The position numbers and the translations under genes are program-made. The notes under the pieces were generated by a model. That model did no database searches. It saw only the letters and a program-made list of their open reading frames with translations, and was not told where the DNA came from. From a phage: DNA of 42,358 bases. Positions 7,936 through 25,809 of the stretch are shown here, piece after piece. The stretch lies in the sequence record PV357170.1; one strand, 5' to 3'. Each line of letters begins with the position of its first letter. Position 1 is the first letter of the stretch.

Positions 7936-8354
7936 TTAATAATCTCCCGTGCTTTGCGTCGTGCTCTAGCTTTTCGAGCCTTGAGCTTCTGTGCCTGCGC
8001 CTGTTCTTCCGGCGTCTTATGTGTATAGTATAGCATATCATACGGCTCTTTGCGAAGATACTCAACCATATTCTCTAAGAATTGTAGTATTCCCTCTTTA
8101 TCCTGCGTCCCGTAACCAGCCCACCTAGCCACCGCATTATACACCTTGCCTTCTGCCCCATTCGCCCCACGCGATAGGACGCCGCGTATATGACCTGTGA
8201 GGTGATCGTGATCGAGCACCATACTGCTAGCACTTCCACGGGCGGCGGAGGTATCTATAGGACGTTTAGTGAGGGCGCAAACACCTCCCTGCTCCTTTAG
8301 TATCTTTAAGGATACCGCTCTTACCTGCCCTCGAGTTATACGACGTGTCGCCAT
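7932..8354 (-). CDS. recombination endonuclease VII-like Holliday-junction resolvase
   Basis: Motif GGVCALTKRP...VLDHDHLTGHIRGVL matches the endonuclease VII zinc-binding and HDH signature. Confidence 0.7.
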   Translation of the reverse strand: MATRRITRGQVRAVSLKILKEQGGVCALTKRPIDTSAARGSASSMVLDHDHLTGHIRGVLSRGANGAEGKVYNAVARWAGYGTQDKEGILQFLENMVEYLRKEPYDMLYYTHKTPEEQAQAQKLKARKARARRKAREIIK

Positions 8355-8785
8355 GATTTCCCCACCAGCATTCTGTGGGTGCTGGACACACCCATGTTTA
8401 AGCGTTTAGCAATAGCGGATGCACCCCACTCACGATCCTGGGGAATGTACATCTGCCGAAGGTACCGCACAATACCATCATCTAGTTTAGCCCTACCGTT
8501 CTCAGTTCCACGTAGAGCTGTTGCCTCGTTGTTACCCCGCCCGCAGCTGTGCTTGTAGTCTGCGTTAGTTTTGTGTGTTCCGGCTTTTAGGTGTTCCAGA
8601 TTAACGCAGCGGGGATTGTTGCACAGATGTTCCACTACCTCCGGCATATAACCGTACGCATTGTAGAACACAACCCGGTGCTTTGTAGTACTCTTTTTCA
8701 CACCTTCCACTTTAAACCACGCAGTGGCATAACCCAATCCCATACCCTTACAGCCATGGTCTATACACGGAGTCTCCATCACCAT
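8336..8785 (-). CDS. HNH homing endonuclease (paralog 1)
   Basis: HRVV...HLCNNPRCVNLEHL HNH core; GGGGAGA RBS; paralogous to the ORFs at 12819..13253 and 15943..16392. Confidence 0.8.
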   Translation of the reverse strand: MVMETPCIDHGCKGMGLGYATAWFKVEGVKKSTTKHRVVFYNAYGYMPEVVEHLCNNPRCVNLEHLKAGTHKTNADYKHSCGRGNNEATALRGTENGRAKLDDGIVRYLRQMYIPQDREWGASAIAKRLNMGVSSTHRMLVGKSWRHVV

Positions 8786-8979
8786 ACCTCAATCTCCCCT
8801 ACTACATCCAGCAGAGCGTTGTCGTGAATGAGAGAATCCAAATGCTCAACCGTTCTTCGATGTGTTTTGGGTGCTCGTTCACGCAGCGCGTCCAGAATAG
8901 TTTCAAGTTCATCATGTTTCCCCTCGTAGTATAACTCAATCGCCCGCAGGCTCATTTCCTTCGCAGACATCTTCGCCAT
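8779..8979 (-). CDS. hypothetical small protein (66 aa)
   Basis: ATG at 8979 with AGGAGC RBS; track ORF extended upstream to a non-ATG start; overlaps the end of the exonuclease gene. Confidence 0.4.
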   Translation of the reverse strand: MAKMSAKEMSLRAIELYYEGKHDELETILDALRERAPKTHRRTVEHLDSLIHDNALLDVVGEIEVW

Positions 8980-9904
8980 TATCTGGGTGCTCCTGTATCC
9001 ACTGTATGTGCTGTTTATGGTACTCGTGCAGCGACTGCACCCAGTCACGTAGACTGGGAGTAGTCAACAGTGACATCAGATACTGATAGGCAGAATCTGA
9101 TTGGGAGCGCCGCAGGAACAGGCATTCAGCCTCTGCGAGTACATCTTGATTGTTTCGAGCATAAGCCGCTACAACGAACTCTGCAGCGTCTTGCTCTGAG
9201 GTAATAGGGTAGATAGCATCAAAGGCCGTTCGCTTGCCACAGGGCTTCCCATCAAGCAACGTGATGCCTTTGACGTTATCTGCGTCGTCCCCTGCTAGCA
9301 TCTGCCACCAGAAGAACTTCAACCCGTGTGCTCGTACAGGCATAGCCTGGGTGTCATCCCACTTAATCCATCCGAATGGGTCCTCCAGTGCAGGCCACAC
9401 TGTACCGGTTGGGATATCAAACCGGGCCATAGGGCTGAGCCAGGAATCTTTATCCTGTGACATCAGGATACCGCGCTCACCGAAGGCGTATGAATCCATT
9501 ATGAACAGATCATCCGCCTCGAAGAAGTCACTGCTAACCACCTGGATACCTTGCTCAGAATACTGGTCCGGATTGTCAATCAGGTGCCGCTTCAAAGGCG
9601 CCTTCAGTGGTAGTTCCTGCCGGTTAGCGCGCTGTCCCTGGTAGGGTTTGGCCGTAGGCAGATGCCAACGCAAGCACTTGGCACATCCTGTAGGGGTCAG
9701 ATACGCGACTGCTTCTGAGCATCCGACCAGGAACATATCCTCAAGCACTAGCTGATAGAAGCGGCGTATCGCGGTGTCCAAACGTTTCACTGTAGCAGCA
9801 GATTTATAAACTGTGAAATCCGCATCATACAGCAGAATCTTCCCCGAGTTCTGCGGAGCTAACTGCTCCCCGAGCTGGGACAAGTCAACCCCATTGATAA
9901 TCAT
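8936..9904 (-). CDS. 5'-3' exonuclease (T7 gp6 / FEN-like)
   Basis: 322 aa; N-terminal ILLYDADF... and acidic FEADD-type metal-binding clusters typical of phage 5'-3' exonucleases; position between DNA polymerase and endonuclease VII. Confidence 0.65.
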   Translation of the reverse strand: MIINGVDLSQLGEQLAPQNSGKILLYDADFTVYKSAATVKRLDTAIRRFYQLVLEDMFLVGCSEAVAYLTPTGCAKCLRWHLPTAKPYQGQRANRQELPLKAPLKRHLIDNPDQYSEQGIQVVSSDFFEADDLFIMDSYAFGERGILMSQDKDSWLSPMARFDIPTGTVWPALEDPFGWIKWDDTQAMPVRAHGLKFFWWQMLAGDDADNVKGITLLDGKPCGKRTAFDAIYPITSEQDAAEFVVAAYARNNQDVLAEAECLFLRRSQSDSAYQYLMSLLTTPSLRDWVQSLHEYHKQHIQWIQEHPDNGEDVCEGNEPAGD

Positions 9905-10445: not shown

Positions 10446-10700
10446 TCATACCCCCAGAAAGTTTACTACTTCATCACGCTTAGCGCGCAGTTTATCAGCC
10501 TGTTCAGCGCACTTAGCTGCTTCAGCTTTGCTGTGTTTGGAGTCTTCTACTCGTGCCTCGGATTGTGCCGCCAGGCGCACTGCATCATCTGCAAACTTAA
10601 TCGACAACTGTTCATTCATTTGTGCCTTAGCGTCAGCACGTTTAGCTTCTGCTGTATAAGCTGCACTTAGGGGTTTGGTGAGAATCTTGATGATATTCAT
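10446..10700 (-). CDS. hypothetical protein (84 aa)
   Basis: Lys/Ala/Glu-rich, probably helical ORF; no motif recognised. Confidence 0.45.
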   Translation of the reverse strand: MNIIKILTKPLSAAYTAEAKRADAKAQMNEQLSIKFADDAVRLAAQSEARVEDSKHSKAEAAKCAEQADKLRAKRDEVVNFLGV

Positions 10701-10752
10701 AGGCTTCCTCTAAGGCCCCAGGCGGGGCCGTATTAGTTAGTAATAGGGTTGC

Positions 10753-11613
10753 TTAGGCTTGCGGTGCAGCAGGCGCTACAGGAGCCGCTGGAGCCACTGG
10801 TGCTGCTGGTGCTACTGGAGCACTCGGTGCCGCTGGTGCAGTGGGCGCAGCCGGGGTGGCTGGGGCTGCGGGGGCTGCGGGGGCTGCAGGAGCAGCCGGG
10901 GCCTGCATAGACTGAGGACTCGGAACCGAACCAGCATTCAGCATAATATCCAACGCACTGCCTGGGAAGTCAACAGCCTTGTACATGTCTTCCTGAATCC
11001 AGTTTTTACTCTTACCATCATCCTTGGTCCCTTCGATATACAAGCTATCCCAGGTTTCTTTGGTCGGATTGTTCCACAAGAACAGCTTAATCTCGGAAGC
11101 ATCCAGCTCAGGCATTTTAATTGGCTCGCCGGTATTTGGGTCGAACTTAGGAATCGGACGGATTGCTGCGAGGTCTACGATGTTGGACTTCTTACCCGCT
11201 GCGCTGGTGTGCTCGTCCACCGGGAACACAAACGCCTGTCCCAGTCGCTGCGCAGCGTGCTTAATGCTACCATCATAGTTGAGCTTGTCGAAGAACTTCT
11301 TGAAGCCCGCACGCTCAAAGTTGCTGATAGTCATCGGATACGGACGGATACGCTTCACCTCACCGTTCGGGCCGTACACCACAATCCCGATGCGAACGTT
11401 CGCCGCGGCAGGCTTACCGGTAGGCTTACCACCTTTAGTCGGCAGGCGCTTACCAATTTCCACGTACTCAGTAAAGTAACCGTAGTACTCACCCTTCGGC
11501 AGCAGTACATCTTCGTACGCACCACCCTGGGCAGTCTCAGTCATATCAACTTCTTGGGTTTCAATCGCGGCAGCAACCAGGGAGTTCAGAGTATCCAGTG
11601 CATTCATAGTCAT
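10753..11613 (-). CDS. hypothetical protein with C-terminal Pro/Ala-repeat tail
   Basis: 286 aa; last ~47 aa are PAAPAAPAAP... encoded by tandem GC-rich nonamer repeats; globular N-terminal domain of unknown function. Confidence 0.6.
   Translation of the reverse strand: MTMNALDTLNSLVAAAIETQEVDMTETAQGGAYEDVLLPKGEYYGYFTEYVEIGKRLPTKGGKPTGKPAAANVRIGIVVYGPNGEVKRIRPYPMTISNFERAGFKKFFDKLNYDGSIKHAAQRLGQAFVFPVDEHTSAAGKKSNIVDLAAIRPIPKFDPNTGEPIKMPELDASEIKLFLWNNPTKETWDSLYIEGTKDDGKSKNWIQEDMYKAVDFPGSALDIMLNAGSVPSPQSMQAPAAPAAPAAPAAPATPAAPTAPAAPSAPVAPAAPVAPAAPVAPAAPQA
10756..10896. repeat. in-frame tandem repeats (about 9-bp units, e.g. three copies of ggggctgcg) encoding a Pro/Ala linker
   Basis: Three adjacent near-identical nonamers around 10863-10889 plus degenerate copies upstream, all inside the 3' end of the 286-aa gene. 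Confidence 0.6.
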
Positions 11614-11664
11614 ATAATTATGTCCTCGTTTAGTTCAAATAATATTTACGTGCAGATGCAGGGC

Positions 11665-11826
11665 TTAGCTGGCTAAGGCCTTAAGACCCAATAGAATGAG
11701 CACTACTAACAGGCAGATCACTAAAGGCCCCCAGAACGGGAGCAGCACCCACAACCAAGACCAGGCGACAACGCCGGTCAGTTTCAGAGTTACAAAGATA
11801 AGACCCAGTATAGAACAGATTTCCAT
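11665..11826 (-). CDS. hypothetical small membrane protein (53 aa, two predicted TM helices)
   Basis: MEICSILGLIFVTLKLTGVVAWSWLWVLLPFWGPLVICLLVVLILLGLKALAS; GAGGTG RBS 9 nt upstream of the ATG at 11826; track ORF starts further upstream. Confidence 0.4.
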   Translation of the reverse strand: MEICSILGLIFVTLKLTGVVAWSWLWVLLPFWGPLVICLLVVLILLGLKALAS

Positions 11827-11845: not shown

Positions 11846-12826
11846 TTATTTAGAACGACCAACCCAACGACCATTGTCGTCAAGTAACATCGGAATTAAC
11901 TGGGGACAACCCTCCGTGATTACCAGTACACCCAGGATTGGTTTCTTACGGGTGAGTCTGCCGTAAGCAAAGGCCATGCTCTTGCGGTCAATCAGGCACC
12001 CTGCATATGCGCCAAAATACAGTGCCGTAGAAGAAGCCGCATATTGTACTTCGAAGCGCCCATGTTCATGCCCCAAAACGAGCGACGTTCTCTCGTGGCT
12101 CGCGTTAAGCATGAAGTCGCCGCTAACCTGATGTTGAAACCGGACGGGCCCGAGAGGTGTACTAAGCACCCAAGCATCGGCCCACGACCAACCTGGAGCA
12201 CTATGCTCGGGGAATAGAATGTCCCGGTATCGCTTAATAAATTGAACTGGTAAGCCGTGAGCCTTGGCGCGGCGATATACAAGACTCCCGTGATTGGAAT
12301 CGCAAACAAGAAGGTTCGGGAATAGTTCATGCAGCTCCTCCAGCACTAGCTTAGCTTTCTCCAGTTCCACCCCGGCACTGTCTAGGTTCGGGTTACTTTC
12401 GTGGAATGATATAGCGTGGCCGTCCGTCTCATCACCAACCTGTACCACCATGTCAGGACAGTATTCATCCCGCACACTTTTTAGGAAGTCCATGGCATCT
12501 ACGTGAGTATAGGGGGCATGCAGATCACCGACAACGAGAATACGGTGGCATACTTCCGGTACGAAGGTTTTACCGATGTCATCAGTGGGGCTAGGCTGTA
12601 TGAGCTTTAGTGCCTCCTTCATGTGAGATACTGCCTTACCCTTGCTACCATTGTGGTCTAGGAAGATGCTGCGCCAGTACTTCACCATCTGGCGGTACAC
12701 CACCGGCTCAGCTAGTCCTGCCAGCTTGTTGTAGGCGGCTGCAGCGTCCACGTTAGAGCTGTGCTTGCTTAGGATATCTACGTGCTGCTCTTTGGTGAAT
12801 AGCTTGATTGTGTTTAACTTAGGCAT
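11846..12826 (-). CDS. calcineurin-like metallophosphoesterase
   Basis: Motifs VVGDLHAPY (GDxH), VQVGDETDG (GDxxD) and CDSNHG (GNH) in the canonical order. Confidence 0.65.
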   Translation of the reverse strand: MPKLNTIKLFTKEQHVDILSKHSSNVDAAAAYNKLAGLAEPVVYRQMVKYWRSIFLDHNGSKGKAVSHMKEALKLIQPSPTDDIGKTFVPEVCHRILVVGDLHAPYTHVDAMDFLKSVRDEYCPDMVVQVGDETDGHAISFHESNPNLDSAGVELEKAKLVLEELHELFPNLLVCDSNHGSLVYRRAKAHGLPVQFIKRYRDILFPEHSAPGWSWADAWVLSTPLGPVRFQHQVSGDFMLNASHERTSLVLGHEHGRFEVQYAASSTALYFGAYAGCLIDRKSMAFAYGRLTRKKPILGVLVITEGCPQLIPMLLDDNGRWVGRSK

Positions 12827-13253
12827 TCCAGCTCCTGTTACTTATCACGTCACTGATTACATGTACACCCACACCATACTTATTAGCAAAGTGTTGCCGC
12901 ATACCTTTCTTGTACGGGACATAGTTGGCCCTAATATCCCGCACGGCGTCCCAAGATAGCAGTGCTTTTGGGTTTCGCTCTCCCCGTACATCTGGGTTCC
13001 TTCCACGTTCCGCACGGTCATTCATATTATCCAAGTGCGTCCCTAGCACTAAGTGCTCTGGATTAATGCACCTAGGGTTATCGCAGGTGTGTCTAACAGA
13101 CAGCCCGGCCATTGCCCTTATGTCTATCCCGTTATGCTCAGCGTACACCACCCGGTGCAGAAGCTCCAATTGTTTAGTTGGCTTATACCATGCCCGGCGG
13201 TACCCGTTCTTATTAAGGCATTTGGTATACCCATGGTCAATGCACATCGACAT
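12819..13253 (-). CDS. HNH homing endonuclease (paralog 2), immediately 3' of the DNA polymerase region
   Basis: HRVV...HTCDNPRCINPEHL HNH core; AAGAGGA RBS; own ~160-bp AT-rich upstream spacer (13254-13416). Confidence 0.8.
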   Translation of the reverse strand: MSMCIDHGYTKCLNKNGYRRAWYKPTKQLELLHRVVYAEHNGIDIRAMAGLSVRHTCDNPRCINPEHLVLGTHLDNMNDRAERGRNPDVRGERNPKALLSWDAVRDIRANYVPYKKGMRQHFANKYGVGVHVISDVISNRSWNA

Positions 13254-13416: not shown

Positions 13417-13638
13417 TCACTCCACGATAAGTTTGTACTCTCCAGAGAAGAAGGTAATACCATCCCCAGGCTTCTCTGAGTTGTTATCTGGATTGATTAA
13501 TTCCACCTCCCAGAGTTCAGGATCATAAGATATCACACGATGCTGAGTGCCAGGTGCAAAGTAATCACGGTGTCTAGGTTCTAATGGTTCCGGCCCAAGT
13601 CCTAGTATCTCCACAATACTACCTGGTTTAATAGTCAT
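13417..13638 (-). CDS. hypothetical protein (73 aa)
   Basis: ATGA overlap with the DNA polymerase stop; no motif recognised. Confidence 0.45.
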   Translation of the reverse strand: MTIKPGSIVEILGLGPEPLEPRHRDYFAPGTQHRVISYDPELWEVELINPDNNSEKPGDGITFFSGEYKLIVE

Positions 13639-15974
13639 TCTACTTTCTCCTTACTGTACATGCTTGTACCCATTTCAGCTTCCGCTGGGAACGGGACCTG
13701 CCCAATGATACCGTAGTTAGGCCATAGCTGGTGGATACGCTTAGGTGCGTCTTCCATGCACTGCTTAACTAACAGGCTCGCTTCTCTGCCTACCTCTGGA
13801 TTGGCACTGTCAAGATACAATGCATCGTGTACGTTCGTAATCAAGCACACCTGATTGTCGAACCAGTCACGTGCCAGCATCGCACGCAGAACCATACCGG
13901 CTGCGACTGCCATCAAGAAGAACGCCTCACCTTGACACCAGTAGTTAGCCATCTCGGTTTCCTTGTAGTCCATCACCTTCTGCTTGCGCTGGCCAGGGAC
14001 TACTTCCTTCCACTGCTCCTTCTGACGGAAGCTGTAGCGGGCACCTGCTGGGCTGGTCCAGGTACCAATTCGGTAGATACGATAACTACCATCATCAGCT
14101 TGCTCCCGGTAAATGCGTCCAGCTGCCCCGGTACGCTCTACTTCTTCCTTGACAACAGCGCGGAATCCTATGGTTGTTGGGAACAGCTTAGCCTCGTTAT
14201 CCAGGAACGCCTGTGCATACTCTACGGTACATCCGGTAGCAAAGGCGATACCCTTAGCCGTAGCACCATACTGCGCAGCAAAACTAGGGGGCTTAATGTC
14301 CGTACGCTGCTGCTTCCAGTACTTGTAGTCTGGCCCGTCAGCGTTATGGCACAGGTCGTACATCTCTTCGTAGGTTTTGTTCTCCTTAAATGCTAGTCGG
14401 TAACAGTGCATGTCCGTGCCGGACTGCAGTAGCCCCAGTAGTTTAAGGTCTCCAGTGTGAACACAAGACATAACCACTTCCAGGGCCGAATAGTCAACCT
14501 CAGTGATGCGACCAGATTCTCCGAAACGAGAGGTGAACATCTGTTTAACCCGGCTCGTCCCATCGCGCGGTAGATTCTGGAGATTCGGGTTAGAACCTGA
14601 CAGTCGCCCGGTGACGGTGGCACAGGTGTTAAGACGGTGGTGGATAATACCTGAACCATCAGGGTTCTGAGGTATGACGTATTGAAGCATGCCCGAGGTC
14701 TTTTTAACTGACCCATCTTCGTTGTACTCCGTTCGTAGATAGTAGGTTCCTGTGTCCTTCTCCAGAGCACCTAGCTCGTTCACCAATCGACAGAACTCGA
14801 ACCCGTGACGGGCTAGCGCTTCCATAGCATCAGTACTGGTGCTGTAGATTGGTGTCCCATCCTGCAGATTCCGGGCTTGCCTGAACTCTCCACGCTCAGC
14901 ATACTTCTCTCGGAGTACCTCGGGCAGTTCTTGGATGTTAACCAGGCCTGGGCAGAAGTAGAGGTCCTCTTCCCATTTGAGTTTCTCTTCCGCTGTATCT
15001 ATGCGGAAGACTTTTGGTAAGCCCTTGTTCTTCCCGGCCTTGTATGTAGTCGCCCCAGGGGGAGCGGGCATATCATCCACAGCAACCCAAGTGTCGCCTA
15101 CTTGCCAGTAGTCCGCCTTGACGTATTGCGGCGGGTCGTAGGGCACCTTCTTGCGGTACTTGATAGGGCCGCCATACACCAGCGCAGACATATGAAAGTC
15201 AGAACCGAAGTTGAAATCTAGCGTCTCCGGCAAGTCCTTGGGGATATACTGCTGCAGCTCCTTCTTAATCTCCAGTATACGCTGTTCCTGCTCTTCTTGG
15301 TTCTTGCGAGCAATCGGCATATTCACGAACAGACCGAACCATTCGCAGTAGGCCCAGGCCAGTAAGGCATCCATGCGCTCCCATACGTACTGCATTTGGT
15401 TGCGCTCTGCAAAGATACCGCACTGGCCGTAGAAGCACAGGGCCGTGTTCGGTATATCCCCGTTAACTAGGTAGTCGTGCAATAGTATAGGGTCGATCTG
15501 GGAGGTTAATACACCTTGCTCCCATAGAATCTTAACACCGTCTACTTTGTGCGTACCGCCGTACTTAGGAGCTGTCTCGTCCAGTGACGGATACATACTC
15601 TGAAAGTCCGAGGCGATGTACTCAGAATGCATCGTACAGAATACGCGACCTCCCCGCTTTAGGAAGGCCTCAAACTCGGCGCGCGCAAAGGTTAGGAACC
15701 AGCTAATCTCATATGCGGCGTTGTGGGCCACAATCAGCCAACAGTCAGCTGGTATTGGGAGCCATTCTGATACAGGTGCCGCTTCAAAGTGCGCGCGACT
15801 GTTATACCGTACACTCTCTACGGGGCCTACTTCTACCGTACCGTCATCGTGCGTGCGGTCAATACGCCACGCTGATTCTACGATGTAATTATCCGGACAG
15901 TACGGGGAAGCAACACTACCGTAATATGGGTGATTTTGCGTCTCATAATCCGTTATCAGGATGCTTCTGCTCAT
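13635..15974 (-). CDS. family A DNA polymerase with 3'-5' exonuclease domain
   Basis: Exo I ITDYETQ at N-terminus; Pol motif A DYSALEV, motif B KPPSFAAQYG, motif C NVHDALYLD; GGGGAGGG RBS. Confidence 0.9.
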   Translation of the reverse strand: MSRSILITDYETQNHPYYGSVASPYCPDNYIVESAWRIDRTHDDGTVEVGPVESVRYNSRAHFEAAPVSEWLPIPADCWLIVAHNAAYEISWFLTFARAEFEAFLKRGGRVFCTMHSEYIASDFQSMYPSLDETAPKYGGTHKVDGVKILWEQGVLTSQIDPILLHDYLVNGDIPNTALCFYGQCGIFAERNQMQYVWERMDALLAWAYCEWFGLFVNMPIARKNQEEQEQRILEIKKELQQYIPKDLPETLDFNFGSDFHMSALVYGGPIKYRKKVPYDPPQYVKADYWQVGDTWVAVDDMPAPPGATTYKAGKNKGLPKVFRIDTAEEKLKWEEDLYFCPGLVNIQELPEVLREKYAERGEFRQARNLQDGTPIYSTSTDAMEALARHGFEFCRLVNELGALEKDTGTYYLRTEYNEDGSVKKTSGMLQYVIPQNPDGSGIIHHRLNTCATVTGRLSGSNPNLQNLPRDGTSRVKQMFTSRFGESGRITEVDYSALEVVMSCVHTGDLKLLGLLQSGTDMHCYRLAFKENKTYEEMYDLCHNADGPDYKYWKQQRTDIKPPSFAAQYGATAKGIAFATGCTVEYAQAFLDNEAKLFPTTIGFRAVVKEEVERTGAAGRIYREQADDGSYRIYRIGTWTSPAGARYSFRQKEQWKEVVPGQRKQKVMDYKETEMANYWCQGEAFFLMAVAAGMVLRAMLARDWFDNQVCLITNVHDALYLDSANPEVGREASLLVKQCMEDAPKRIHQLWPNYGIIGQVPFPAEAEMGTSMYSKEKVE

Positions 15975-16392
15975 TCCATACCCTCCCCTTTATGATATTA
16001 GATATGTATCCTTGACTTATCCCGAAGCGTCTCGCTATAGATACCTGGGTCTCACCGCCAGCATATGCTTCTCGTATACTGTGCACGTCTTCTGGGGTAA
16101 GTCTGGCAGCAGGGTTGCGGCTGCCCAGCAAATTACGCGCACCTTTATTTCGGTCCTGCATATTATCACTAGAAGTCCCTAGTAGCAGGTGCTCCGGATT
16201 TATGCACCGAGGATTGTCACACGAATGCCGGACTACAAGTCCCGCGATATCACTCAGCTTCAAGTTGTGGGCTATACAATACGCTTTGCGGTGGCTTCCA
16301 GTTGTCTCTCCATCAAATCTGGAGCGGCCATATCCAGCGCACTTTCCTCGGCAAGTGCTTCCCTTCTGCCCGTGGTCGATACAATCTGTCAT
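15943..16392 (-). CDS. HNH homing endonuclease (paralog 3), overlapping the DNA polymerase start
   Basis: HSCDNPRCINPEHL core plus C-terminal helix-turn-helix-like IARRFGISQGYISNI; ATG at 16392 (track ORF starts at a TTG at 16398); 3' end overlaps the first ~10 codons of the polymerase gene. Confidence 0.8.
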   Translation of the reverse strand: MTDCIDHGQKGSTCRGKCAGYGRSRFDGETTGSHRKAYCIAHNLKLSDIAGLVVRHSCDNPRCINPEHLLLGTSSDNMQDRNKGARNLLGSRNPAARLTPEDVHSIREAYAGGETQVSIARRFGISQGYISNIIKGRVWNEQKHPDNGL

Positions 16393-16697
16393 CTCCAATT
16401 AATCCTCCGCGCCTTATTGACAGCCAAGTGCACAATCAGCCGGCTGCTAATTAGCACGGGCCGTATGCTGAAAGTACCCACAGATGCAGCGTACGCCTTA
16501 ATTACCTCTTCGTCGAGATAGTTAATGTCGGACGGTTTAAGCATTCTGCCTTCTCCCACACTGGATGCACATACCACCTATAAATGTCAACCTTGCCCCG
16601 CAGTGCTTGCACTCCCAGTCTGTCAGTATAAACATAGTATATCTCCATCCATCATCTGTGTACCTACATAGCGCCCTCTAGGAAGGCGCTAGGGAAG

Positions 16698-17978
16698 TCA
16701 CTTGTTAATCTGCCCTTCGTTAAATCGGCATCTACCTGGGTCGAATGCTACCTCGAATTGCAGTAGCGATTCCTTACCCGATAGCGCCATCTTATTCTTC
16801 GGCGTACTGATACCACGAATGTTTTGCATATGCGGCTGCTCGTTCCTGTCCAAGCACCCCATCATAATTGCTAAATCCAAAGCACCTTGCACACCAATCT
16901 TACTCTGCTTCATTGCTGTGAGCGGTGGAAACAGCAGGTTATAACCTTCGAGTGAAAGCTGCATAGTACCAATAACGGCACAGTCATTCTCACACCCCAG
17001 GATTCGCAGCTCCTGCCACTTCGCCTCTAGGTTCTGGTGTTCGCTCTCCATCGTACCACCACGGATGTTAGCTACCATATCTATGATGATTACCGCCGGG
17101 CGCATCTCCTCCATTAGCGTAGAGATTTGAGCCATAGTAAGAGAGTGTGCCGCCTTGATACGGATGCGGTCAGCCCTACCTACTTTCTCCAAATAGGCCG
17201 GCACAAACTCTTGCTTACTGTGCCTGTCCTTAATCTCAGCCAGAGTCCAATGCAGCGCCGCTTGGTATACCCTCGGCACAGTGCGCGTCGCCGGGCCTTC
17301 ATTAACCAGCCATAGAATCGGACGATCCCCGTACACCTCCGGTTGCTGCTGCATCTGCTTAGCAAAGTCCACAGCAATAGCAGCGAGTAGGCTAGTTTTA
17401 CCAGAATCAACAGGGGCAGCCACAGCAATACAATCACCACCGCGAAGCCCGCGGATGCTATTAGAGAGTTGCTCAAATACGCCCAGTTTAAGACCACCAC
17501 TTTCATCAGTCGCGGCAAGTATCTCATCAACACTTCCGCTCTCCCACTCTAGTAGCGAATCATGAACAGCAGCACCATCCCCGTACTTGCGCTGGAGGTG
17601 CTTCATCTCCAGTAGATAATCAACCTCCTCACCGTCTTGGTAGCGCTGCGTGAGCGCTGCAACCTCTCCGCTGTATGCCAACTCATTCAGGGTCTGCACA
17701 ATCCCCACCACAGAATCCTGTGGTACGGCTTGTACTCCCCGCATAAGCTCATCCATAATCACCCGCTCTTCACGGGATAGATGCCCGGCCCGGAGGTTGA
17801 GCATACTCTGCATCGCATCCCACTGCACCTCTTGGTGCTCTGGGTACGTGTTCCAGTACAGCCCTACCCAGTCCAGCAGGTTCGAGGTGTCCGGCGCAAG
17901 CATAGACTTGGGTATCTGCTCTCGCAGTCGGTTCCAGACCTTCTGCGTGCACATTGCACGCACAACTATTAAGTCCAA
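16698..17978 (-). CDS. replicative DNA helicase (DnaB / T7 gp4 helicase-domain-like)
   Basis: Walker A AAPVDSGKTSLL and Walker B-like VIIIDMV; 426 aa; adjacent to primase gene. Confidence 0.8.
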   Translation of the reverse strand: MDLIVVRAMCTQKVWNRLREQIPKSMLAPDTSNLLDWVGLYWNTYPEHQEVQWDAMQSMLNLRAGHLSREERVIMDELMRGVQAVPQDSVVGIVQTLNELAYSGEVAALTQRYQDGEEVDYLLEMKHLQRKYGDGAAVHDSLLEWESGSVDEILAATDESGGLKLGVFEQLSNSIRGLRGGDCIAVAAPVDSGKTSLLAAIAVDFAKQMQQQPEVYGDRPILWLVNEGPATRTVPRVYQAALHWTLAEIKDRHSKQEFVPAYLEKVGRADRIRIKAAHSLTMAQISTLMEEMRPAVIIIDMVANIRGGTMESEHQNLEAKWQELRILGCENDCAVIGTMQLSLEGYNLLFPPLTAMKQSKIGVQGALDLAIMMGCLDRNEQPHMQNIRGISTPKNKMALSGKESLLQFEVAFDPGRCRFNEGQINK

Positions 17979-18760
17979 GTTAATGCCTCCAGTATCTCTT
18001 TGATTTCTGCGTCCTTAGGATCCGCAGCGAAGTAGTGTTCTCGGCACTGCATGAACGGGCGCAGTGCCCGGCGTGTTGCCGCTACCCCAGCATGTCCTGC
18101 CGGGTCATTGTCCAACATTAGAATCACTTCCGGGCGATTCTGAATCAGCCAGGCCCTTAGCTGCGTGGGCAAGCGTGTACCCAGCATAGCTATAGCCTGC
18201 ACGTTCAACGCACTGTAGCTCGTAACTGCGTGCTGTATCTTCAGGGCTGAGAGTAAGTCCTCTGTGAGCACGACCTTTAGAGGAGCGCCCGCAGCTACAG
18301 CCGGTGCTACGGCAGGTTCCGCGACAGCGAAAGCTATTGGCTGGCCGTACATTACCCACTTCGGTTGCTGCCGAGCATGTACTGCACGGCCCAGAGCAGC
18401 GCTTCCGACACGGAAGATTATCCGCTGTTTCTCTTTGCTCCATTCTGCATCCCCCACCATTTCAGGCATGATTCCCTTTGAAGCAAGGAATCCGTAAATA
18501 AAACTCTGCGTTTCTGCAGGCGCTTGGCTAATGCAAATTGCATCTGCAGGTGCAGAGGGCTGCACCCTCGGCTCTTCCTGTAACTGTATGCGCTGGTACT
18601 GCTTGCGCTCCTTGCCTACCTGTTTGCAGCGGTGGCAATAGTATTCCCAGGCATCCGGGTTATTATAGAGCACCCCGGCGGAGTCCCTGCCGCAGCACCG
18701 AAAGCGTGCCCTCTGCCCCACGGCCAGGCGCTTGCACGCTCTAAGCCAGGGCTGGTCCAT
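17969..18760 (-). CDS. DNA primase (zinc-ribbon plus TOPRIM)
   Basis: Cys4 cluster RFRCCGRD...YYCHRC followed by TOPRIM motifs VVLTEDLLSA and LMLDNDPAG. Confidence 0.75.
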   Translation of the reverse strand: MDQPWLRACKRLAVGQRARFRCCGRDSAGVLYNNPDAWEYYCHRCKQVGKERKQYQRIQLQEEPRVQPSAPADAICISQAPAETQSFIYGFLASKGIMPEMVGDAEWSKEKQRIIFRVGSAALGRAVHARQQPKWVMYGQPIAFAVAEPAVAPAVAAGAPLKVVLTEDLLSALKIQHAVTSYSALNVQAIAMLGTRLPTQLRAWLIQNRPEVILMLDNDPAGHAGVAATRRALRPFMQCREHYFAADPKDAEIKEILEALTWT

Positions 18761-24458: not shown

Positions 24459-25100
24459 AAACTTGCCCCTTAGAGAATATAATCTAGCGCAGCCTCATTA
24501 CTACTGCGCTATGTTATACACTCTTTGCGGGATACACTCCGCGCCTTGTTCCCTCGATTCAGAGGAGCGTGCTGCTCACGCCTCGGCAGTAAGGTTTGCC
24601 TCAGAACCCCGGTGATAACGTCCGGCACGTTTACTCTTTATGACTGATTATCTAGGATTGGTCGTCATCGTACCAGTCAAGGTACTGGGCCTCCCCGCAA
24701 ACCAGCTTACTACGTTGTTCGCTATCTAAGTTACTAGGTGAATCTGAACTTGTCAAGCGTTATTTCTTACTTTTAAGCCGTCCGGTTTATGTGTCCGGTC
24801 ACCTGTAGCGGCTTGCTACGTGGAGGTGTCCTAGTTAGCGGCCTGTCTTCAACTATCCTGCCGTACTACTTGGATTCAATCTAGCTTATGTTCTTCGCGG
24901 TGTCAACTCTTTTATCGAGTATCTAACCCTTCACACCATCTAGCTTTAATCCGGTGGAGTCTCCCGACTCTACCCCGGTTAGCGCCTCAGTGCCTCCCGG
25001 TGATTGAACTATAACGCTAACAAACCAAAATAAGCAAGTACTTTTTGCAATTATTTATCTCTAAGAGCAAAAAGGGTAAGCAAGGCAATGGTTTAGTCAA
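24459..25100 (-). promoter_or_regulatory. probable early promoter / leader region (no individual promoter pinpointed)
   Basis: Non-coding DNA directly upstream of the first early genes; only weak -35/-10 candidates found by eye (e.g. TTGACA near 24751-24756 with a poor -10). Confidence 0.3.
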
Positions 25101-25110
25101 TGCTTCCATT

Positions 25111-25714
25111 CTAGGGATAGCTCTAGGGATAGCCCACTACTAGCCAATGCTAACCAATACAATCTAACGCTACACAAAGCAGAACGTAGTGCCCGTACGA
25201 AGTGAAAGGGCACGTAGTGATGCGGTGACTGTGTTGGTAATGCTTACTCCCTACGGTCGTAATATAGGGCATTACTAGGGGATACTAGTGAGTAGTAGTA
25301 AGTAGTATGTATCTAGTGCCCTAAAACCCTCCTACTCGTGTAACATCATTTCAAATTAGCTTTCGAATGAAAGTAAGGGTGAAGGGATAGCTCTAGGGAT
25401 AGCGACAGAGTCCGGCAGAGTGTAGCGGATAGTGGCGGGTAGTGGATGTGCGCCCTAGTGGGGAGCGCGCAGCGTAACATATAATCGGCGCAATGTAAAG
25501 CACTAGAGATAACCTTAGAGATAGCTCTAGAGATAGCATATAGACGCACTAGCAGCGCACTGGGCGGCCCACTACGGCCCACTAGGTGTGGCACTATGGC
25601 TGCACAAAATAAGCAAGGCAGAGCGCACCCCTATGGCCCACAGGGAGCGCACAGGAAGCGCCCTAGTGAACGCACAGGCATAGCCGTAGGGTAGCACTAG
25701 CGATAGCCCTAGCG
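25111..25714. repeat. array of short direct repeats: 11-bp motif CTAG(R)GATA(G/A)C in 8 or more copies, including a 21-bp unit present three times
   Basis: agggatagctctagggatagc at ~25113-25133 and ~25383-25403 (identical) and the G-to-A variant agagatagctctagagatagc at ~25517-25537; further copies at ~25503-25513 and ~25697-25707; tandem ggcccactac/ggcccactag at ~25566-25585. Confidence 0.75.
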
Positions 25715-25809
25715 CAGCGCAGAGAGCCGCTGAGAGCGCCATAGAGGCACTGGCAGGCCCCAGGCTGCCCGCGGCCATCTAGACGTCCAGACATCCAGCC
25801 ACCTAGATA

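Follow-up and report, generated by a model that had tools for sequence, protein, structure and literature searches.

The replication gene of a Klebsiella phage studied here encodes a protein that is read, with a probability of about 0.6, as a phage SSB (a protein that binds single-stranded DNA) whose linker has become an uncharged, tip-less repeat, prone to the polyproline-II conformation. The gene lies in the window, i.e., the whole stretch of 42,358 nucleotides that was analyzed (sequence record PV357170.1), which is a phiKMV-type podophage genome of the genus Drulisvirus, reading mostly on the minus strand. The record nearest to the window is that of Klebsiella phage KPV811, with 97% nucleotide identity, and the KPV811 protein is 100% identical to the window protein over aa 1-230. 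The features of the gene are the following:

10753..11613, minus strand: complete coding sequence, 286 aa plus a TAA stop; PHROG 862 protein, orthologue of LUZ19/phiKMV Gp21
10918..11613, minus strand: conserved N-terminal region, aa 1-232, from alignments and the AlphaFold2 model
11176..11493, minus strand: predicted OB-fold core, aa 41-146, β1-β2-β3-α-β4-β5
10756..10902, minus strand: uncharged tail, aa 238-286, 16 x-Ala-Pro units and a terminal Ala, from the codon listing
10862..10888, minus strand: near-perfect triple nonamer, GCAGCCCCC twice plus GCAGCCCCA, in a shifted register, on the coding strand

The family to which the protein belongs is very large and keeps a fixed place in the genome. 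The window protein matches PHROG 862 (E 2.4e-83, with aa 3-273 aligned to positions 3-266 of the 276 in the profile), a family annotated as "unknown function" (NCBI cluster PHA02030), and the same match is found in all 36 diverse members scanned. In Pfam, neither the window protein nor any of 35 relatives hits a family at E up to 0.1, and the Xp10, LUZ19 and Aeromonas-phage orthologues have no match either. By tblastn, a homologue is present in 882 phage records, covering phages of Klebsiella, Pseudomonas, Acinetobacter, Pectobacterium, Vibrio, Ralstonia and other hosts, while a profile built from the N-domain alone retrieves 1001 clusters at 50% identity among 1.84 billion representatives. 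The gene is located between the DNA polymerase and the 5'-3' exonuclease in every genome with gene order examined (the window, KPV811, AttikonH5, LUZ19, Xp10, two Aeromonas phages and one metagenomic contig), within a replisome block that runs primase, helicase (DnaB-like), DNA polymerase, this gene, 5'-3' exonuclease and endonuclease VII. In the window, the primase is found at 17969-18760, the helicase at 16698-17978, the DNA polymerase at 13635-15974 and the exonuclease at 8936-9904. An earlier note on this DNA had called the product a replication-module protein, and its location in the window, between the DNA polymerase and phosphoesterase genes and the 5'-3' exonuclease gene, bears this out. 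When 17 ORFs from the early and replication region were compared with PHROGs, no other annotated SSB came up.

An antisense ORF of 305 aa (10759..11676, plus strand) overlaps the gene and was rejected as a gene, as the PHROG and homologue evidence is all on the minus strand. It stays open since GCN-CCN repeats yield no stop codons when read on the opposite strand, and the remainder of the gene is likewise stop-free in that direction. The antisense ORF is longer than the real one, such that a naive longest-ORF gene caller would choose the wrong strand at 10759-11676.

The fold predicted for the N-terminal region is that of an OB domain. The AlphaFold2 model, run on a 62-sequence alignment, has a mean pLDDT of 84; taken in blocks of ten residues, the value is above 90 throughout aa 41-190 and in most blocks from there to aa 220. 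Its elements comprise strands at 41-56, 70-80 and 86-89, a helix at 103-111, and strands at 127-136 and 142-146. This order of β1-β2-β3-α-β4-β5 is that of an OB fold, a feature of the ssDNA-binding class. Behind it comes a small C-terminal subdomain of high conservation (aa ~150-230), in which residues F178, P183, W188, N204, Q207, G218, S219 and L221 are invariant. The N-terminal region also includes a helix at aa 5-19 and a D-M-T-E…G-G segment at aa 20-40, ahead of the OB core. The tail has a pLDDT of 60-80 in the model and exhibits no secondary structure. The best Foldseek matches in the PDB are weak and comprise SSB, PriB, PrgE and RPA; the top seven are all PriB or SSB, at E 0.008-0.03. 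Among viral models, Foldseek retrieves family members and Xp10 37L, along with a DUF669 protein (E 9e-6) and one that bears the name SSB. Since the N-terminal domain is a predicted OB fold, the protein is a candidate SSB.

The V-D-M-T-E-x-x-x-G-G segment of aa 20-40 (window 11494-11556) shows strong conservation, at D23, G30 and G31, yet its pLDDT is below 50. The N-terminus of the N4 SSB (…TDNLGGGFG…) is alike by eye, a homology which no profile method supports.

Profile comparisons with characterized SSBs count against the SSB reading, in that no sequence or profile link to any of them was found. In hhalign, the N-domain profile gives 0.1% against T7 gp2.5 and 0.4% against the HK620 SSB; a resemblance to gp2.5 (PDB 1JE5) was detected neither in sequence nor in structure. 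The N4 SSB shows no link as a single sequence and 0.1% as a 34-sequence profile, which is shallow and makes this negative a weak one. For a verified DUF669 protein there is no link with the sequence alone and 0.8% with a 12-sequence profile, a weak test because its members are at least 70% identical and the profile is thus shallow. PF05037 (DUF669) has no HMMER match for any member tested, and the Foldseek match mentioned above is the sole link found to DUF669. The HK620 protein HkaK, assigned to DUF669 by its authors, was tried as well and has no Pfam match here. With respect to the Pfam SSB family, the window protein gives no profile match and lacks an acidic, aromatic-ended tip, and the absence of this tip likewise counts against the SSB reading.

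The literature on these families nevertheless makes a functional analogy of the protein with DUF669 and N4-type SSBs reasonable. Proteins at the same position in genomes with the phiKMV gene order, Xp10 included, have been called DUF669-containing by an HHpred-type assignment (PMC9145550), and the Xp10 protein 37L is a true homologue of the Gp21-type family (hhalign 98.1%). DUF669 and N4 SSB proteins have been argued to be divergent OB-fold SSBs (PMC4889955), and the HK620 protein assigned by its authors to DUF669 is an SSB that binds ssDNA in vitro (PMC5928155). The literature searched contained neither a published SSB assignment for phiKMV-like phages nor a published ssDNA-binding assay for the Gp21-type family.

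Xp10 gene 37L (L073 10814-11419) is annotated as a homologue of 201 aa that ends just past the conserved FLWD motif, and as annotated it lacks the C-terminal subdomain and the tail. Its shortness suggests that the 2003 record contains a frameshift or a sequencing error, or else that the gene is genuinely truncated.

The C-terminal ends of the family are diverse, and some of them are those of bacterial SSBs. Every homologue inspected, down to ~30% N-domain identity, consists of a globular domain and a low-complexity tail; the tail is conserved across the whole family and is therefore not an oddity of one isolate. Uncharged ends rich in Pro, Ala and Val up to the last residue, as in the window, occur in 154 of the 266 members. 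Tips like those of the bacterial SSB C-terminus are found in 12/266 (for example …LGDFDDDIPF, …SELDDDIPF, …IDFDDDTPF, …DDDIPY and …DSDVPF), and the member ending in …IDFDDDTPF (P0091) occupies the orthologous position of a syntenic phiKMV-like contig. In 22/266, a Lys/Ala/Pro-rich linker leads into a …D(P)LAALGL motif, and the remainder are other ends (72/266) and short fragments (6/266). The LAALGL-ended subset is found among the relatives P0213-P0263 and the loci L069 and L070, and in two proteins (P0242 and P0239) a LAALGL-type motif stands in tandem with an acidic …DDDIPF or …DEIPL tip. A globular OB domain with a disordered linker and an optional partner-binding tip is how SSBs are built.

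An SSB has to be abundant while DNA is being replicated, as for T7 gp2.5 and T4 gp32. The window protein is orthologous to Gp21 of LUZ19/phiKMV (annotated p21), with 37% identity over the N-domain. LUZ19 Gp21 is a highly abundant and toxic protein of the late-early/middle phase, to which its authors (Lavigne et al.) assigned no function (PMC3604761). When expressed alone, it brings about immediate host growth arrest and lowers transcription and translation by 20-25%, while thymidine incorporation is unchanged (PMC3604761). With thymidine incorporation unaffected and transcription and translation lowered, the phenotype points as much to a host-directed role. It thus permits the main rival reading, whereby the protein would be an OB-fold accessory or host-takeover factor, which may bind RNA or a host protein and shut down host expression, the tail serving for docking or as a spacer. 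Such a role is considered rather unlikely, in view of the fixed position of the gene inside the replisome block in the genomes with gene order examined, the bacterial SSB-Ct tips (…DDDIPF) on some family members, and the lack of another SSB candidate among the replication-module ORFs scanned. Toxicity, moreover, is also expected from an over-produced foreign SSB.

The tail itself is defined by its peptide. Residues 238-286 read APAAPAAPAAPAAPATPAAPTAPAAPSAPVAPAAPVAPAAPVAPAAPQA, which is 16 x-Ala-Pro units, where x is A, V, T, S or Q, and then a final Ala; these last 49 residues contain no acidic, basic or aromatic residue and end in …APAAPQA. The earlier note had described a Pro/Ala tail of about 47 residues with its end at 10896; the tail is indeed there on the 286-aa protein, but it has 49 residues and extends six bases further, to 10902. 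The GC content reaches 73% at 10750-10899, versus ~50% in the flanks. Tandem Repeats Finder places arrays of period 9 at 10781-10821 and 10862-10902 and adds rows of periods 18 and 27; taken together, the arrays cover 10763-10907.

At the DNA level, however, most of the periodicity follows from the peptide repeat. For the null, the peptide was kept and its codons were drawn anew among synonyms, following the codon usage of the genome. The self-identity of the complete tail at lag 9 amounts to 66%, versus 64±2% in the redrawn sequences (P=0.21). Relative to random synonymous codons, the sole unusual feature is a 17-nt perfect run at lag 9 (P=0.009). The description of the tail as near-perfect tandem nonamers thus holds for the 27-nt stretch 10862-10888 and fails over the tail as a whole. 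Within this stretch, the nonamers at 10862-10870 and 10871-10879 are perfect and that at 10880-10888 carries one mismatch, which makes the three adjacent copies of ggggctgcg seen previously nearly exact; the 27-mer has 0 matches in 100 shuffles. Only this one short segment looks like a recent duplication. The periodicity outside the local triple is only what the amino-acid repeat imposes, and it is therefore the peptide, rather than the DNA repeat, that is conserved. The use of Ala and Pro codons is almost even in the tail, whereas GCG and CCG are preferred in the rest of the gene.

The number of tripeptides varies extensively among close relatives. In a comparison set of 60 Drulisvirus relatives (IMG/VR), whose N-domains are at least about 90% identical to that of the window, the tail was counted after the conserved LDIMLN motif, which gives 60 residues for the window. 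Tail lengths by this count are 30, 36, 39, 42, 45, 48, 51, 54, 57, 60 or 102 residues, with a mode at 51-54 and a cluster at 48-57; the 60 residues of the window are near the upper end and one relative reaches 102. All lengths are whole tripeptides, and none of the 60 relatives shows an indel of 3 or 6 nt that would break the register. Among the ~810 tripeptides counted across the relatives, about 97% carry Pro as their third residue, the tail termini (…MQAPAAP and …APAAPQA) are nearly invariant among the 60, and all variants are in frame with the same …APQA end.

The same variation separates genomes which are otherwise alike. In the first 660 nt of the gene, the identity between KPV811 and the window is 97.7%. 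The only difference in length between the two is one GCAGCCCCC unit; in the alignment, the 9-nt gap of KPV811 (L003) falls exactly inside the triple 10862-10888, leaving KPV811 one nonamer short. Two pairs of contigs have N-domain DNA that is 100% identical, and in each of them the tails are one 9-nt unit apart. One such pair, L031/L034, is identical over the ~2.3 kb compared (1.5 kb upstream and the whole gene), save for one CCGGTAGCA unit, present as a run of two versus three copies. Such one-unit differences between otherwise identical contigs mean that units are gained and lost faster than point substitutions arise here. The expectation in the earlier note that slippage would alter the repeat number between isolates is thus confirmed, by the range of 30-102 residues in 60 relatives, the clean 9-nt steps, KPV811 and L031/L034. 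Whole-unit differences with clean indel boundaries identify the tail as a slippage-prone, length-polymorphic coding repeat. It is not a phase-variable contingency locus, since the unit of 9 nt allows no on/off frameshifting and the variants are all in frame.

Slippage of this kind raises a second alternative, namely that the tail is a neutral low-complexity appendage, made and resized by slippage in a GC-rich stretch and tolerated since it is disordered. The three-fold length range (30-102 residues) in close relatives, the variation even between otherwise identical contigs and the lack of predicted structure in the tail would all be compatible with neutrality. This alternative is nonetheless improbable, as a low-complexity tail accompanies every homologue inspected down to ~30% N-domain identity, Pro is third in about 97% of ~810 units, lengths cluster at 48-57 residues with no 3- or 6-nt out-of-register indel in 60 relatives, and the termini …MQAPAAP and …APAAPQA are nearly invariant. 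The codons are also diversified, the DNA being no more repetitive than the peptide demands, and this diversification indicates selection on the peptide.

Finally, the contradictory names that orthologues bear in GenBank ("Fe-S oxidoreductase", "large tegument protein", "DNA polymerase", "tail collar" and "structural protein") can hardly be correct, given that the protein lacks any cysteine and therefore cannot bind an Fe-S cluster, that its sole similarity to the herpesvirus large tegument protein is a Pro/Ala low-complexity stretch (E 8.2), that Pfam gives no match to the families behind these labels, and that the gene is in the replication block and not in the virion block. The "tegument" mislabel results from this low-complexity similarity in the profile search of PDB sequences, which returned only low-complexity noise, the herpesvirus large tegument protein included. 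In some 2024 GenBank records, the orthologue is labeled "single strand DNA binding protein".

If the protein is an SSB, as preferred here, its OB domain would coat ssDNA at the phage fork and the tail would be the counterpart of the disordered linker of bacterial SSB. Pro at every third residue would favor an extended polyproline-II conformation that lines up the prolines along one face and measures up to ~150 Å for 49 residues. The tail may then act as a stiff spacer and/or as a multivalent ligand of the PxxP type for phage replisome partners or neighboring SSB molecules. The classical acidic tip would have been lost in the Drulisvirus clade, and the …APAAPQA terminus or the repeat itself would carry any partner contact. 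Slippage by whole units would preserve the three-residue register, whereby the length may drift without destroying function. The suggestion made earlier of a flexible spacer or protein-interaction tail agrees with everything found. Partner binding by PxxP motifs in SSB linkers is disputed (PMC7145534, PMC10164576), and the contact made by the tail is thus the weakest step of the mechanism. It is doubtful, although conceivable, that phiKMV-type SSBs have given up the near-universal acidic tip and employ a register-strict, uncharged (x-Ala-Pro)n rod in polyproline-II conformation, of slippage-tuned length, that mediates cooperativity or partner recruitment through multivalent PxxP contacts.

Several additional features of the window are of note. 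A perfect 6-bp GC hairpin (GGCCCC-AGGC-GGGGCC) is located at 10714-10729, between the stop of the tail-bearing gene and the ribosome-binding site of the next gene (10446-10700). It was considered as a terminator and rejected: it does not suit the coding strand, on which no T-tract is present, and the region around it has a fold z-score of 0.05. The hairpin may serve in RNA processing or stability. The replication module also contains HNH homing-endonuclease genes, identified by Pfam and PHROG, at 8336-8785 and 12819-13253 (both on the minus strand), and a third ORF, at 15943-16398 (minus strand), resembles them in its N-terminal sequence. The HNH gene at 12819-13253, for which there is no room at the equivalent site of KPV811, overlaps the start of the metallophosphoesterase gene, whose product has 326 aa in the window versus 344 aa in KPV811. 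At 25100-25800, short tandem repeats are densely clustered (nine Tandem Repeats Finder rows, periods of 8-12), within a stretch of ~24.2-26.0 kb that has no convincing ORFs and is presumably the early regulatory or genome-end region.

In phage therapy against Klebsiella, Pseudomonas and Acinetobacter, the phiKMV-like phages (Drulisvirus, Phikmvvirus, Friunavirus and others) belong to the most widely employed. They are without an assigned SSB in their replisome, and curated libraries list the present protein, which is very abundant and toxic, as "unknown function". An SSB assignment, if true, would remove the wrong labels "Fe-S oxidoreductase" and "large tegument protein" from hundreds of genomes and would explain the toxicity of LUZ19 Gp21. 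It would also provide a natural series on the role of the SSB tail, from tip-less uncharged tails of 10 to 34 units to acidic tips and LAALGL tips. Should the more specific notion of a tip-free rod prove true, the family would offer a natural test of SSB linkers as interaction modules, with the …DDDIPF and …DPLAALGL relatives as comparators. On a practical level, the copy-number polymorphism is a marker that separates otherwise identical phage isolates, and short-read assemblies may misassemble the repeat region of the tail.

A comparison with known systems places the protein close to several of them. As in bacterial SSB of the E. coli type, its predicted OB fold leads into a disordered, Pro-rich stretch with PxxP spacing, and some members of the family have a …DDDIPF-type tip. 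The window protein differs from bacterial SSB in that it lacks the acidic tip and has an uncharged tail, and in two additions, a conserved C-terminal subdomain (aa ~150-230) and a helix at the N-terminus. With T7 gp2.5, the type SSB of the autographiviruses, it shares an OB fold and a C-terminal tail, as well as the role expected in a T7-like replisome. The DUF669 protein DLP1 gp33 is alike in its long, non-acidic, low-complexity tail. Among DLP1-like DUF669 SSBs of Pseudomonas and Stenotrophomonas siphophages (P0267-P0284; L079 424-1170), N-domains that are 98-99% identical belong to proteins of 189 to 237 aa, with non-acidic tails rich in Gln, Gly, Pro and Ala that end in …APWGQR, although some of the shorter ones could be partial genes. 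Length-polymorphic, non-acidic tails may thus be common in divergent phage SSBs.

LUZ19 Gp21 occupies the same place (DNA polymerase, small gene, gp21, exonuclease) and likewise consists of a globular domain and a Pro/Ala/Val-rich tail. Its tail of ~90 residues is less regular (…VPAVPQ…, with a few acidic residues) and forms no clean tripeptide array, whereas the Drulisvirus tail is a strict (x-Ala-Pro)16, and the 9-nt copy-number polymorphism is shown for the Drulisvirus clade only. As in other in-frame tandem-repeat polymorphisms of proteins, whole units are gained or lost by slippage between otherwise identical genomes; here, in contrast, most units are codon-diversified and the length drifts modestly around a mode. 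The tail is a conserved, register-strict and length-polymorphic extension of what is probably the SSB of phiKMV-type phages, a variation on the known SSB design rather than a new kind of system.
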